DNA of 64,000 nt, from positions 22,638-86,637 of the IMG/VR virus record IMGVR_UViG_3300028888_000071; one strand, written 5' to 3'. Numbering within the stretch: the stretch's first letter is position 1; each line of letters opens with the position of its first letter. This document shows positions 10,202-62,313 of the stretch, one piece after another. A program made the position numbers and the translations under genes. Under the pieces are notes generated by a model. It did no database searches and was not told the DNA's origin. It saw nothing but the letters and a program-made list of their open reading frames with translations. The stretch comes from a virus. Lineage: Duplodnaviria; Heunggongvirae; Uroviricota; Caudoviricetes.

Positions 10202-10226
10202 TTTTGTTATATTCAATTATAAATTA
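10202..10226 (+). promoter_or_regulatory. conserved promoter-like motif TTTTGTTATATTCAATTATAAATT
   Basis: Member of a family of at least 13 sites, located about 6-40 nt upstream of start codons. Confidence 0.45.
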
Positions 10227-10231
10227 TTGGA

Positions 10232-11575
10232 ATGAGAACACGAACAATAGACAATTTTCTGGACGTTGACCAAAGGCAGTTCGCCGAATCTGTAGTTGAA
10301 GACCGTGCAATACCGAGCTGCATCGATGGCTTCAAGCCAGTGCAGAGAAAAATCATATACATCGCAAACAAGATATGGAAGACTGGAAACGAGAAGCCGA
10401 TGAAAGTGTTCCAGCTTGGCGGGCATGTCTCAAGCCAAGCGATGTATGCTCACGGCGATGCTTCACTCAACAAAGCAATCTCGCTCATGGGCACCACATA
10501 CAAGAACAGCCTCCCGCTGTTAGAAGGCCACGGGCAGTATGGCTCGCTCCGTGTGCCAGCAATGGGTGCTCCAAGATACATCGGCACGAAACTGTCCAAG
10601 AACTTCAGACTTCTCTACAAAGACTTCGAACTTCTCAAGAACAAGATAGACGAAGGCGTCGAGGTCGAGCCTGACTTCTTCTTGCCCATCGTCCCGACTA
10701 TACTGCTCAATGGAAGTTCCGGCATCGCAGTCGGATATTCGACTAACATCTTGAACAGGAACCCGCTTGATGTCATTGACGCTTGCACCGACTATCTCAA
10801 AGGCAAGAAAGTGAAAGAGCTCAAGCCGTGGTTCAGAGAGTTCAGCGGCACTTGGAAAAGAGATGACGAAATCGTGAACAAGTGGAACATATCAGGCGCA
10901 TACCAAGTAGTGAACACCACGACAGTGAAAGTCACTGAACTGCCGCCTGACATCACATTCGAGAAGTATGAAGACTGGCTCGAGACACTATGCACGAAAA
11001 AGACCATATTTGACTACGACAACAACAGTTCAAGCTCAGTCAACTACACATTGAAGTTCAATCGTGCGACTCTTAAAGACCTCATCTCTTCAGGCAAGCT
11101 GGAGAATGTGCTGAAAGTGAACTCGTCTGAGACAGAGAACATCGTCGCTATCGATGAGAACGGCAAGCTCAAAGTGTTCAGTCAAGCTGAAGACATCATA
11201 CCATATTTCTGTGAGTTCAGACTAAAATGGTACGACAAGAGAAAAGAATATATCATCAACAAATTGCAGCAAGAGCTTCTCGTGCTGTCAAACAAAGCAC
11301 GGTTCATCAAGTCAATCATCGACAAGAAACTCAAAGTAAACAATGTCCCGAAAGCAGAAGTGGTAGCTTGGCTTGCAGACAACAAGTTCGACAAGATGAA
11401 CGGCAGCTTTGACTACCTGACGAACATGGCTATCTACAATCTGACAAAAGAGAAATATGAAGAACTCCTCAAACAGAAAGAAGCGAAAGCCAAAGAACTT
11501 GATGACATGAAGAAACGTGTTCCGAAAGACATGTACATGGATGATTTGAAAACCCTTAGAAAAAGTGTTGCGTGA
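10232..11575 (+). CDS. type II DNA topoisomerase, GyrA-N-terminal-like subunit (T4 gp52-like)
   Basis: FKPVQRKIIY...GHVSSQAMYAHGDASLNKAISLMG...GQYGSL...GAPRYIGTKLS parallels GyrA KPVHRR...YHPHGD...GNFGS...AMRYTEARL, including the active-site Tyr. Confidence 0.7.
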   Translation: MRTRTIDNFLDVDQRQFAESVVEDRAIPSCIDGFKPVQRKIIYIANKIWKTGNEKPMKVFQLGGHVSSQAMYAHGDASLNKAISLMGTTYKNSLPLLEGHGQYGSLRVPAMGAPRYIGTKLSKNFRLLYKDFELLKNKIDEGVEVEPDFFLPIVPTILLNGSSGIAVGYSTNILNRNPLDVIDACTDYLKGKKVKELKPWFREFSGTWKRDDEIVNKWNISGAYQVVNTTTVKVTELPPDITFEKYEDWLETLCTKKTIFDYDNNSSSSVNYTLKFNRATLKDLISSGKLENVLKVNSSETENIVAIDENGKLKVFSQAEDIIPYFCEFRLKWYDKRKEYIINKLQQELLVLSNKARFIKSIIDKKLKVNNVPKAEVVAWLADNKFDKMNGSFDYLTNMAIYNLTKEKYEELLKQKEAKAKELDDMKKRVPKDMYMDDLKTLRKSVA

Positions 11576-11985
11576 TGTTTAGCGATTCCAAAAACATAAA
11601 ATGCACTGATGACTTGAACTGCGTCATATACAACCAGAATGCTTTTCTTGGCAAAGATGCTGGGTTAGCGTATCCGACTTCTGTGCAGTTTTCTGCGTCT
11701 TTCGTTCTGGACAGAAGGCCTCCTGATGTGACGTTCAACACATTGTACATAACGACAGACAACGAAAAGGTGAATTTCTACAATTCTACAATAGCTAGGA
11801 TAAGAAGATACCAGACATGCGGCAGAACAGTCCATATTGATGTGTCATATTTCTCAAATATGCTCGACAACACTATAGCTGAAGTATTGGTGAACCACGG
11901 AAAAGATATCAAATGCATAGCAAATGTAACCGAAAACGGTGGAGTAAGAATAAAAATATTGTTAGAACATGTTCAGCGACAATGA
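11572..11985 (+). CDS. MFSDN-family small protein (137 aa)
   Basis: Starts MMFSDSKNIKC. C-terminus ...IKILLEHVQ, paralogous to 12447-12836. Confidence 0.5.
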   Translation: MMFSDSKNIKCTDDLNCVIYNQNAFLGKDAGLAYPTSVQFSASFVLDRRPPDVTFNTLYITTDNEKVNFYNSTIARIRRYQTCGRTVHIDVSYFSNMLDNTIAEVLVNHGKDIKCIANVTENGGVRIKILLEHVQRQ

Positions 11986-12211
11986 CAACCTTAAAGATTT
12001 CGTGAAAGAAGACTTCATCCCGGAAACAGAAATGGATCCTCCGAGAGCAGAGCTTTTTTTCTACAATCTCATCGACAGTGAAAACATCAGCAAACTGATG
12101 AACGACTCAGACAGTTTGCGTGTGATGCCACAGACTAGTTTCACAGAATCATTTGCAGACTATGCGAAAACATTTGACGAATTCATCGTTGACTGGGACT
12201 CTAAAATTTGA
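11969..12211 (+). CDS. MFSDN-family small protein (80 aa)
   Basis: Starts MFSDNDNLKDF. The start is embedded in the GAACATGTTCAGCGACAA junction. Confidence 0.45.
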   Translation: MFSDNDNLKDFVKEDFIPETEMDPPRAELFFYNLIDSENISKLMNDSDSLRVMPQTSFTESFADYAKTFDEFIVDWDSKI

Positions 12212-12444
12212 GAGAAATGTTCAGTGACAATCCAAAACTTATAGACAATCATTTCTTGAAAGCCGGATACACATATTTCTGCAAAAAAGACTATGATGCG
12301 ATACCGCTCATGTATACTTATTATGGAACTAAATTCCACAAAGGAGAGTCATATGTATGCTTATTTGATGGCGTGTTGATGAATAAACAAGGCGGCTTCT
12401 TTTTTGAAAAAGACGTGAAGAATCCTAAAGAATATTTTGAATAG
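12208..12444 (+). CDS. MFSDN-family small protein (78 aa)
   Basis: MREMFSDNPKLID. Overlapping start/stop. Confidence 0.45.
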   Translation: MREMFSDNPKLIDNHFLKAGYTYFCKKDYDAIPLMYTYYGTKFHKGESYVCLFDGVLMNKQGGFFFEKDVKNPKEYFE

Positions 12445-12446
12445 CC

Positions 12447-12836
12447 ATGTTTAGTGACAACGAAAATCTCAAATGCATCATAACAGACAATCTTAACTGT
12501 GTCATTTATAGTCAAAGATTCATACCAGTAACTCACAACTTGCAGTTTTCGATATCTTTTTTTCTTGGCAAAAACAAAACAGCACCGGTGCTCACATCCC
12601 AAAACATAATAATCAAGACTGATGACAATTGCATAAACCGCAAAAGCTGCACTCTTGGCAAAGTGCTGAGATACAAGACGTGTGATAACAATGCTGCTGC
12701 TGATGTTTTATATTTTGCAATAGGCAGTGAACTTACACGGATACTGTTCAACAACGGCAAAGAATTGAGATGTGAAGCATACTGCACAGAAGCTGGCGCA
12801 ATCGAACTAAAAATATTTTTAGAACATGTTCAGTGA
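12447..12836 (+). CDS. MFSDN-family small protein (129 aa)
   Basis: MFSDNENLKCIITDNLNCVIYSQRF... ends ELKIFLEHVQ. Paralog of 11572-11985. Confidence 0.5.
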   Translation: MFSDNENLKCIITDNLNCVIYSQRFIPVTHNLQFSISFFLGKNKTAPVLTSQNIIIKTDDNCINRKSCTLGKVLRYKTCDNNAAADVLYFAIGSELTRILFNNGKELRCEAYCTEAGAIELKIFLEHVQ

Positions 12837-61234: not shown

Positions 61235-61237
61235 TAT

Positions 61238-61453
61238 TTATAAGACTTCAAGTTCAATAGTCGCTTCACTGTTATCCAAGCAGGCATCAATTAAGTTGAG
61301 TATTCCACTTGGTTTGCTTATAACTCCACGACTGTACTCGACATTTCTTGCCGAGGTTTTAAAGTCTTCTACTGACCTATGCCATCTAACTTTCTTGGTT
61401 TTGCTTATACAAATTAGTTTGTTTTTTAATTTAGTATAAAACCACAATACCAA
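61238..61453 (-). CDS. small ORF (71 aa) inside the inverted-repeat-bounded segment; coding status doubtful
   Basis: ORF-track entry only. No motif. Confidence 0.2.
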   Translation of the reverse strand: MVLWFYTKLKNKLICISKTKKVRWHRSVEDFKTSARNVEYSRGVISKPSGILNLIDACLDNSEATIELEVL

Positions 61454-61509
61454 TACTTCAAAGAACTATAAAACTCAATATATTTATAAAAGTCATTTTC
61501 AAGATTTTT

Positions 61510-61535
61510 TTACAAGACTAAAAGGGATAATTCCG
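61510..61535. repeat. 26-bp perfect inverted repeat, right arm
   Basis: TTACAAGACTAAAAGGGATAATTCCG is the reverse complement of 61209-61234. Confidence 0.85.
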
Positions 61536-61549
61536 TTTTTATTTATAAA

Positions 61550-62263
61550 TCATAAATTTTCTTCAAGCTGAGCGTCTCTGATAGCATCACGCATGTCATC
61601 AGCAATCATAGCTCTCTTGTTAGCTGCATCTTTCTCTGCAGCACGATAAAGCTCGCTCATGACATTGTCATTGTAGTTGAACTCAGCCATCAAGTCTGGC
61701 ATATATTGTTCTAGTGTTTCATAGCATGGCAGATGTTCGAATTCTTCAGCACGCACGGGTTTGTTCCTTCCATATCTGATGTCCTTGAGCAACATGTTCT
61801 CTATCGTTATTGTTTCCGGAACATTGTCTTCATCAACATTGTATTCCCAGTCAAGCAGCACACACACACTTATGTCATAGCATTCTGCTTTAGTGTATAT
61901 GCCAAACTCACAGCAAGAAGGATCGACATAAAGCTCGCTGTCATCTTTTCTAAACACATTCTTGTTCTGCTCCCATTCATTTGGCGTGATGCCAAGAAAA
62001 TAAAGATATTCTATATCTTCAAACGTGACTTGGTTTCTACGCACAATCATCTGTGTAGCAGGACTTGCGTCTTCTATTCCTGACAAGTCAAACACAAGAC
62101 CTTGCATCGCATCTTTGGTGAATCTTGCTGTGCCGTTGAAATAGTCATAGAACAAACCATGAACGATATTCACAAGTTCCATTTCTGTCTGTGGAACATA
62201 TGCCTTGCTGTCTTGCACATGTCTGCTCGTTTGGTAAAATTCATTAAGTCTTTTGATTTTCAT
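61550..62263 (-). CDS. hypothetical protein (237 aa); by position upstream of the capsid gene possibly a scaffold/protease-type head gene
   Basis: ORF. No motif I can name. Confidence 0.45.
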   Translation of the reverse strand: MKIKRLNEFYQTSRHVQDSKAYVPQTEMELVNIVHGLFYDYFNGTARFTKDAMQGLVFDLSGIEDASPATQMIVRRNQVTFEDIEYLYFLGITPNEWEQNKNVFRKDDSELYVDPSCCEFGIYTKAECYDISVCVLLDWEYNVDEDNVPETITIENMLLKDIRYGRNKPVRAEEFEHLPCYETLEQYMPDLMAEFNYNDNVMSELYRAAEKDAANKRAMIADDMRDAIRDAQLEENL

Positions 62264-62287
62264 ATTTTACTTATTTAGTAGTTTATT

Positions 62288-62313
62288 TATACAAGTTTTT
62301 TTGTTATATTAAA
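62288..62313 (+). promoter_or_regulatory. conserved promoter-like motif TTTTTGTTATATTAAAATATAAACA
   Basis: 17 nt upstream of ATG 62331. Confidence 0.45.

Follow-up and report, generated by a model that had tools for sequence, protein, structure and literature searches.

Transcription cascades driven by phage-encoded sigma factors are already well known. In Bacillus phage SPO1, gp28 is a phage sigma factor with a cognate promoter class, and the programme of T4 leads from early genes read with sigma-70 through middle genes dependent on MotA/AsiA to late genes read with gp55/gp33/gp45 from the box TATAAATA. Promoters have likewise been described for gp36 of phiEco32 (tAATGTAtA) and for gp47 of Salmonella phage 7-11 (GTAAtg-N16-aCTA), and in these two phages a sigma factor with region 4 goes together with a bipartite promoter, one without region 4 with a single element (PMC8948821). 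'RpoD-like' sigma factors have also been noted in group 2 (T4-like) jumbo phages, including phages of Bacteroidetes (Iyer et al. 2021, PMC7824862). Here we describe a stretch of 64,000 nucleotides (hereafter the window) from a member of the Caudoviricetes, positions 22,638 to 86,637 of IMG/VR record IMGVR_UViG_3300028888_000071, in which a repeated sequence, the class M box, stands before about 13 gene units and a protein of the sigma-70 family, a candidate for its cognate factor, is encoded at 30535-31131. The box is, judging from its sequence and placement, very probably a phage-specific promoter of a non-late class. While the design is thus a familiar one, its parts are new: what appears to be novel is the candidate target motif, a map of three promoter classes, and a phage of the T4 superfamily that would rely on a sigma factor of its own where T4 has MotA/AsiA (PMC6024815).

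The class M box follows the consensus ttTTT(G/A)TTATAT(T/C)-mAAtT-(g/a)TAAa, and each site is cited below by the first T of its TTTG. A degenerate 21-mer taken from a preliminary description of this DNA matched ten times at up to three mismatches (0.00 expected) and the 11-nt core TTTGTTATATT 16 times at up to one mismatch (2.3 expected), while the anchor TT[TA][GA]TTATAT[TC] occurs 13 times on the + strand and once on the minus strand. A position weight matrix of 24 positions, built from the sites themselves, returned 12 strong sites (10203, 13082, 25481, 29918, 31190, 38214, 41179, 41815, 50317, 51736, 52249 and 62300) with scores of 25.7-34.3 bits, or 17.5-34.3 bits in leave-one-out scoring. 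The next match reaches 12.7 bits and is followed by noise of at most 11 bits, and first-order Markov simulations yielded 0-6 matches at 10 bits or more. Each of the 12 strong sites falls between genes, on the + strand and facing a + strand gene, and the weight-matrix scan of the window found no strong copy inside a gene or on a non-coding strand; intergenic DNA is AT-rich and makes up 5.6% of the window. Start codons lie 29-54 nt from the first T of TTTG in 11 of the 12 sites and 157 nt from it in the case of 51736. The match of 12.7 bits, on the minus strand at 20411, combines a perfect core and TGTAAA at -19 with a divergent 3' half and is a probable further copy. Behind the boxes stand genes for topoisomerase II/IV subunit A, a T5orf172-helicase with methyltransferases, SPFH/flotillin, Gp157, NUDIX, DUF932 and kinase-like proteins, and small proteins without assignment.

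The central claim of the preliminary description, a promoter-like box repeated before some 13 gene units, is borne out by these 12 strong sites and the probable minus-strand copy, and several of its details need amendment. Its coordinates are generally 1-3 nt off (12 nt in the case of its 62288), and the variants at 25478, 51734 and 38211, regarded there as weaker, are in fact full-strength sites. The minus-strand variant exists as a probable site, at 20411 and not at 20388. The second partial core at 50297 is present as a bare 11-nt core, which scores just 3.6 bits with the full matrix and was rejected as a full site; a supposed antisense variant at 28479-28502 scores 3.5 bits (28480) and is no site. 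Two further weak variants are doubtful, namely 3606 (11.0 bits, before 3638-5767) and 45889 (4.4 bits, before a dCMP deaminase gene). Exact-motif scans of IMG/VR gave single matches per contig, at chance level, and searches of the literature with the motif string returned unrelated primers only.

Column statistics confine conservation to about -18 to +21, i.e. approximately 40 bp, and with unrelated sequence on either side of this span the box does not belong to a longer repeat, the counter-case considered in the preliminary description. From 5' to 3' it consists of an optional TG(T/C)AAA, 12 variable bp, a T-run with TTT(G/A)TTATAT(T/C), mAAtT and (g/a)TAAa. The first element, in the form TG[TC][AG]A[AC], stands exactly at -18 in six of the 12 strong sites, its density elsewhere being 0.0018 per position. 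Likewise in six of the 12, TG(T/C)AAA lies 17 bp upstream of TATATT, a hexamer that is invariant in 12 of 13 sites and has TG one base before it; the G of this TG is kept in 10 of the 13 window sites and is A in three. Read from the sequence, the 17-bp spacing and the TG before TATATT would correspond to a sigma-70-type geometry with an extended -10 element. Extended -10 promoters of sigma-70 carry TGnTATAAT (TRTG in Firmicutes), and sigma-28-type promoters TAAA-N15-GCCGATAA. With the former the class M box would have in common a TG separated by one base from a TATAAT-like hexamer (A in the second and T in the sixth position) and an optional hexamer at 17 bp; with the latter, TAAA at the -35 position and an unusually long conserved -10 block. 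It differs from both in the hexamer TATATT, in the G, which is A or C in the relatives L007 and L131, and in the conservation of the upstream T-run and the downstream mAAtT(g/a)TAAa, a grammar that the host's own sigma does not have. The co-orientation of the box with genes, its short distance to their starts and the restriction of conservation to about 40 bp support its interpretation as a promoter class of its own.

The host is judged to belong to the Bacteroidota, as a Shine-Dalgarno core was found in only five of 77 genes and leaders are 52% A, which is the pattern of Bacteroidetes (PMC6847099). Promoters in this group follow the consensus -33 TTTG / -7 TAnnTTTG, in which T-12, A-11, T-8, T-7, T-6 and G-5 are nearly invariant, and E. 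coli-type promoters are silent there (PMC6847099). The class M box is unlike this type, as the preliminary description had already held: T-12/A-11 are missing from 11 of the 12 strong sites, and the full TAnnTTTG (TACTTTTG) is found at 10203 only. If TTTG of the box is taken as -8 to -5, the required T is present in two and the required A in three of 13 sites. A host -33/-7 reading was therefore rejected in either register; TTGTTA as -35 with T(A/G)TAAA as -10 was also discarded, since the spacer would be just 8 bp. In the aligned flanks we found no consensus resembling the MotA box, which is (a/t)(a/t)(a/t)TGCTTtA near -30. Host-type boxes themselves are not enriched in the window (42 versus 49.5 expected), and six of them are intergenic. 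Two genes have a host-type TAnnTTTG box in addition to a class M box, namely the topoisomerase gene (10199-10206, overlapping) and the Gp157 gene (41704-41711, 110 nt upstream); tandem early-plus-middle promoters of such a kind are common in T4.

A second class, overlooked by the preliminary description, which dealt with class M only, is formed by the T4 late box TATAAATA. It is present in 21 copies (1.35 expected), of which 18 are intergenic and most lie 27 nt before an ATG; no conserved upstream element was found for these boxes. Copies are located on the + strand at 8924, 18398, 23368, 24843, 32846 and 41164, and on the minus strand at 8925, 23359, 27098, 29896, 41167, 45857, 56885, 57831, 61194, 61488, 61547 and 62291, several of them sharing a divergent intergenic region with a class M box, to which they stand back to back. 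The genes concerned encode a baseplate wedge protein, a gp2-like end protector, gp15-like protein and terminase, a baseplate hub protein, the major head protein, the head protease and a family of DUF285-like paralogs. Since TATAAATA heads structural genes, the class M box would represent a non-late class. That it is not itself the T4 late box, as stated in the preliminary description, is evident from its core TTATATT; only 13082 has TATAAATA, in its 3' half.

On the strength of the late-box class the phage is a member of the T4 superfamily, and T4-like terminase, capsid, baseplate and gp15-like genes are all present in the window. The best matches of the T4-like terminase are the uncultured huge phages LR756500-LR756504 (462-735 kb), and the capsid protein is 80% identical to that of IMG/VR contigs of 75-413 kb. 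LR756500, the nearest by terminase (42% identity), was discarded as a guide to either motif, being too distant and AT-rich (24% GC). As in T4, the identical box TATAAATA stands without a -35 element at a short fixed distance before late genes, and a separate class precedes genes of DNA metabolism. Unlike in T4, there is no MotA box and no match to MotA or AsiA (60 of the 77 window proteins were scanned against PHROG), host-type promoters obey the Bacteroidota -7 rule, and what distinguishes the non-late class is a -10-like element of its own together with a candidate dedicated sigma factor, not an appropriated host sigma.

At least eight paralogs of PHROG 5070/7964 are encoded in the window (9485-10108, 23396-24034, 24031-24855, 32859-33566, 33572-34291 and 34296-34994 on the + strand, 26214-27071 and 42436-43560 on the minus strand). 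They are repeat proteins, relatives of this family carry Pfam DUF285, and most of the genes lie directly 3' of a late box or within an operon headed by one. By their position they are a large multigene family with predicted late expression.

The protein encoded at 30535-31131 (+ strand; 198 aa) comprises a sigma-2 domain, a disordered linker (approximately residues 92-134) and a sigma-4 helix-turn-helix. By itself it has no Pfam match above threshold and matches PHROG 15865 ("RNA polymerase sigma factor") at 1e-4. A profile of 15 homologues, however, found SigA, RpoS, SigB and FliA as top matches in the PDB, aligned on region 2.1-2.4, and all 15 family members match Pfam Sigma70_r2 below its gathering score (best E 3.4e-4), seven of them also Sigma70_r4 or r4_2, again below threshold. 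The AlphaFold (AF2) model (pLDDT 72) shows two helical domains joined by a disordered linker, with pLDDT 82-90 in the C-terminal helices; nearly all its Foldseek matches are sigma chains from holoenzyme structures, and ECF sigma chains spanned its full length. An exhaustive HMMER search retrieved 17 representatives at E <=1e-10 and about 85 more distant proteins. Among 35 of the latter that were sampled, all pass Pfam Sigma70_r2 and 30 pass Sigma70_r4, and hhalign aligned the sigma family with these 35 at 99.9% (E 5e-32, 179 columns), covering both domains including the C-terminal helix-turn-helix. The preliminary assignment of a sigma-70-like protein to 30535-31131 is therefore confirmed: its sequence and predicted structure are those of a true two-domain member of the sigma-70 family.

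Orthology of this protein with T4 gp55 was rejected, as hhalign gave 0.8% with gp55 itself and 6.4% with an alignment of seven gp55 members, over only 32 columns of region 2, and as its sigma-4-like C-terminal domain is unlike the minimal gp55. Among the 60 window proteins scanned, no PHROG match to gp55, gp33, MotA, AsiA or another sigma factor was found. A tblastn search with the sigma protein against 50,697 phage records gave no match, and neither a pattern-based search for the sigma in IMG/VR and GTDB genomes nor a neighbour-gene search in IMG/VR with a 379-aa protein found anything; through the capsid, relatives were found in IMG/VR after all, with more divergent sigma factors.

The arrangement of the sigma gene sets it apart from its surroundings. 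On its 5' side, an intrinsic-terminator-like hairpin at 30302-30330 (11-pair stem, six GC pairs) would insulate it from the upstream class M unit, and a host-type -7 box TACTTTTG (TAnnTTTG) at 30484-30491 lies 51 nt before its ATG. Directly 3' of the gene follows a terminator hairpin at 31155-31189 with a 15-pair stem, the T-run of which enters the next class M box (all on the + strand). The 120-150 nt 5' of the gene are conserved in every relative. The -7 box reads TATATTTG in L002, L007, L129, L132, L133 and L135, and TATCTTTG and TATTTTTG boxes precede sigma paralogs in L143 and L156. The different, more host-like upstream region noted in the preliminary description is thus substantiated, and terminators together with a host-type promoter imply that the sigma gene is expressed differently from the box-driven neighbours on both sides. 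Most simply, it would be transcribed by the host holoenzyme. Also shared between the region 30385-30534 and the corresponding ones of L002, L007, L127-L129 and L132-L137 are a pair of AGAAAAAATTTT(T)C elements, spaced by about 40 nt, and TGTACAAC(G/T)TAT, which precedes the TAnnTTTG box; both sequences may serve to regulate an early shut-off.

Synteny with the window, and the box at orthologous places, were found in contigs whose sigma homologues are 41-66% identical. It is located in the divergent region next to the gene for the 379-aa late protein in L002, L128 and L132-L135, directly after the sigma terminator in L002 and L129, and before the Gp157 and DUF932 genes in L007, there as TTTATTATATT; in L131 it takes the form TTTTTTATTATATTCAATAAAA. 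IMG/VR relatives fetched through the capsid (80% capsid identity) contain box-like sites and many late boxes, and their lineage carries members of the sigma family. Indeed, box and sigma family co-occur in all relatives examined. Relatives of 146-413 kb hold at least two further sigma paralogs, one of P0133 type and one of P0022/P0143 type with its own host-type promoter (L142, 10001-10573; L143, 10001-10639; L156, 10001-10741), and two subfamilies are found on one 413-kb contig. One paralog belongs to an operon for nucleotide metabolism (NT5C, DHFR-TS, topoisomerase); the other has its own host-type box and is found close to the tail sheath gene.

These observations can be joined into a cascade in which the host sigma-A holoenzyme would transcribe the terminator-insulated sigma gene from its TAnnTTTG promoter, and the phage sigma, with its sigma-2 and sigma-4 domains, would bind host core RNA polymerase. 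The resulting holoenzyme would read the 13 boxes before genes of DNA metabolism and accessory functions, and structural genes would be read from T4-type TATAAATA boxes, presumably via a gp55-like factor encoded outside the window. We infer that the box initiates transcription, with mAAtT(g/a)TAAa spanning a start some 6-8 nt after TATATT, which would give leaders of about 12-37 nt. Such a three-tier succession of host, phage-sigma and T4-late promoters is probably the best-supported reading of the window. For its middle step, recognition of the class M box by the 30535-31131 sigma, parsimony and co-occurrence can be adduced, and we hold the chances of its being right to be evenly balanced. More speculatively, a dedicated two-domain sigma may have replaced sigma appropriation in this lineage, its promoters using an E. 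coli/Firmicute-like grammar that the host sigma is unable to read and so forming an orthogonal channel between host-read early and T4-type late steps, possibly with several paralogous sigmas and channels; this wider proposal is tentative.

The cascade agrees with those of phiEco32, 7-11 and SPO1 in that an early phage sigma would redirect host core RNA polymerase to a phage-only consensus before many genes. As in 7-11, a sigma with region 4 would be matched with a promoter having a -35-like block, here an optional one, and as in phiEco32 there is a single-element promoter, here the late box without an upstream element. It departs from all three in the consensus, in its Bacteroidota host, in being found in a huge phage of the T4 superfamily that retains the T4 late box, and in a sigma from a small family known only from metagenomes and without a Pfam match above threshold. 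With the jumbo phages of Iyer et al. the phage shares a large T4-like genome without an RNA polymerase of its own and with a fuller sigma besides the expected minimal gp55-type factor; unlike that survey, which gave no target promoters, the present analysis offers a candidate target motif together with a promoter map of three tiers.

Several observations weigh against the assignment of the box to this sigma, or against the promoter geometry on which it draws. A strict extended -10 reading is weak because A or C can take the place of the G in TG, and in relatives the -35-like block is present in only two of 13 sites. In the sigma protein, the residues aligned with W433/W434 and H455/E458 of sigma-70 (TG contact or -10 melting) are not conserved, so that its specificity cannot be read from sequence. 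The loci in which sigma and box co-occur were mostly fetched through the sigma itself. In the wider clade, moreover, the sigma factors form at least three subfamilies with a mutual identity of 32-37%, and in L142 the operon that holds a sigma paralog may itself start from a weak box-like site; with further paralogs in the clade, the assignment of sigma to box is not one-to-one.

One alternative is that the box is read by the host primary sigma holoenzyme, for which it could be a strong early promoter of non-canonical type as it stands, or become a promoter once a phage activator or appropriator has remodelled the holoenzyme in the way of T4 MotA/AsiA, and that the 30535 sigma serves other targets. 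The invariant TTTG is common to the box and the 3' half of the host -7 box, 10203 has the full TACTTTTG, and with intergenic host-type boxes as rare as the six in the window, early transcription from these alone would be sparse; moreover, the T4 middle class itself relies on sigma appropriation (PMC6024815). We nevertheless consider this reading unlikely, since T-12/A-11, nearly invariant in host promoters (PMC6847099), are missing in 11 of 12 sites, since neither a TGCTT-type MotA box in the aligned flanks nor a MotA or AsiA match among the 60 scanned proteins was found, and since the box is accompanied by a conserved, dedicated two-domain sigma.

Alternatively, the box could be read by another phage factor encoded outside the window, for example a sigma paralog, and the 30535 sigma could read an unsampled class or the TATAAATA late boxes. 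Box-driven units flank the sigma gene on both sides in all close relatives, which speaks for the 30535 sigma as the reader, and a role of this protein at late boxes fits poorly with its lack of likeness to gp55 (6.4%) and with its sigma-4 domain, late boxes being without an upstream element. In favour of this alternative, which we regard as rather improbable, are the two or more further paralogs in relatives of 146-413 kb and the fact that no gp55 homologue was found among the window proteins scanned.

The class M box might also act post-transcriptionally or apart from transcription, as an RNA leader element (translational operator or processing site) or as a site for a repressor or a replication or recombination protein. 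This is very unlikely: three boxes start at or just past the T-run of a strong terminator and would hardly be represented in read-through RNA, the spacing to the ATG ranges from 29 to 157 nt and is ill-suited to occlusion of a ribosome site, the two-block 17-bp geometry fits RNA polymerase, and copies are absent both from genes and from the non-coding strand. In favour of such a role, any promoter model would place the 3' half of the box in the leader, and the U-rich UUGUUAU core of the box may resemble the RNA target of T4 RegA. Finally, the AT-richness of intergenic DNA and the presence of other repeats in the window (a 26-nt inverted repeat and a 13-nt palindrome) might suggest that the box is produced by composition alone or belongs to a longer element, repeated or mobile, a view effectively refuted by unrelated flanks about 18 nt upstream and 21 nt downstream, by the zero matches expected in shuffles and by positions kept in relatives at 41-66% sigma identity.

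If the three-tier cascade is true, uncultured T4-like huge phages that infect gut and rumen Bacteroidota obtain their first promoter map, whose tiers are the host's -7 box, the class M box and the late box of T4, and this lineage would have solved the middle-gene step by a sigma of its own and not by MotA/AsiA. A 198-aa sigma and a promoter of about 40 bp that the host sigma should ignore would also constitute an orthogonal expression pair for the engineering of Bacteroides/Prevotella. In addition, the motifs are of use in assigning gene starts and temporal classes when phage contigs from metagenomes are annotated.

The individual sites are as follows (+ strand unless stated). The box at 10200-10223 (30.5 bits, 27.9 leave-one-out), which overlaps the host-type TACTTTTG, stands before the gene for topoisomerase II/IV subunit A (10232-11575; Pfam DNA_topoisoIV, 8.5e-90), followed by small genes to 13077. 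That at 13079-13102 (34.3 bits, also leave-one-out) precedes a gene for a protein of 1358 aa with T5orf172 and ResIII helicase domains (13124-17200; Pfam) and methyltransferase-like genes to 18394 (PHROG). The probable minus-strand box occupies 20391-20414 (12.7 bits), has a perfect TTTATTATATT core and serves 19697-20374(-). Site 25481 (25463-25501, 25.9 bits), with its -35-like TGTAAA at 25463-25468 and a terminator hairpin (25428-25458) 5' of it, is followed by 25517-25750 and 25753-26208. The box at 29915-29938 (32.4 bits), back to back with the minus-strand late box 29896, precedes 29961-30260 and 30163-30423 and is kept at the same place in L002, L128 and L132-L135. Site 31190 (31172-31210, 29.7 bits), whose -35-like TGTAAA (31172-31177) lies in the terminator loop, heads the SPFH/flotillin gene (31244-32785; Pfam Band_7, 5.7e-22). 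The box at 38196-38234 (25.7 bits; core TTTGTTATATC, -35-like TGCAAA) stands before a gene whose start was reassigned to the ATG at 38246 and which ends at 39544.

Further downstream, the box at 41176-41199 (27.4 bits) is back to back with the minus-strand late box 41167 and serves 41222-41647, and that at 41797-41835 (29.1 bits, -35-like TGTAAA) precedes the Gp157-like gene (41861-42343; Pfam Sipho_Gp157, 5e-39), with an orthologous site in L007 at 4919. A tandem pair at 50297-50337 consists of the bare core (50297-50307, 3.6 bits) and a full box (50314-50337, 26.4 bits), behind which lie a NUDIX gene (50347-50895; Pfam, 5e-14) and 50933-51694. Site 51736 (51718-51756, 29.1 bits, -35-like TGTAAA) is followed 157 nt on by a zinc-ribbon open reading frame (ORF) with CxxC...CxxC (51893-52141); a minus-strand ORF overlapping the latter is probably spurious. 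The box at 52231-52269 (33.8 bits, -35-like TGCAAA), 3' of a terminator-like hairpin, heads the DUF932 gene (52288-53007; Pfam), with its counterpart in L007 at 10406. The last one, at 62297-62320 (33.1 bits), back to back with the minus-strand late box 62291, precedes 62331-62702 and a polynucleotide-kinase-like gene (62696-63613; PHROG 505, 6931). The preliminary list of served genes is confirmed by Pfam for topoisomerase II/IV A, T5orf172-helicase, SPFH/flotillin, Gp157, NUDIX and DUF932. Its statement that the boxes typically come right after a terminator applies to 25481, 31190 and 52249, which follow hairpins, and loosely to 10203 and 41815, and not to the other seven.

Neither tRNAs nor Rfam families were found in the window. 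DNA methyltransferase-like genes are present at 57909-59216(-), 1713-3002 and 17187-18394, and the giant T5orf172-helicase-methyltransferase gene 13124-17200 stands beside such genes; together they suggest that the phage is heavily equipped for DNA modification or anti-restriction. A perfect 26-nt inverted repeat, CGGAATTATCCCTTTTAGTCTTGTAA, at 61209-61234 and 61510-61535, encloses a 275-nt segment with an ORF of 71 aa just 5' of the late promoter of the major capsid gene. It recurs in the relatives L127, L128, L131, L137 and L143 and adjoins IS605-type TnpB genes in L127/L138, L137 and L143, and it may be an end of the IS200/605 family or a guide-RNA remnant.

The palindrome TAGATGTCATCTA has exactly three copies (7572-7584, 19480-19492 and 41747-41759), each in an unusually long intergenic gap. 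Every copy is preceded by AAAGTGTC and lies 55-65 nt 3' of a stretch with the related sequence TAGATGAT.TCTA or TAATGACATCTA. In the stretch 5' of the third copy a hairpin with a T-run is found at 41671-41701, and a host-type TATCTTTG box at 41704 lies between the related stretch and the palindrome. For this element, which has no Rfam match, the roles of operator, early-promoter module and small RNA can be envisaged.

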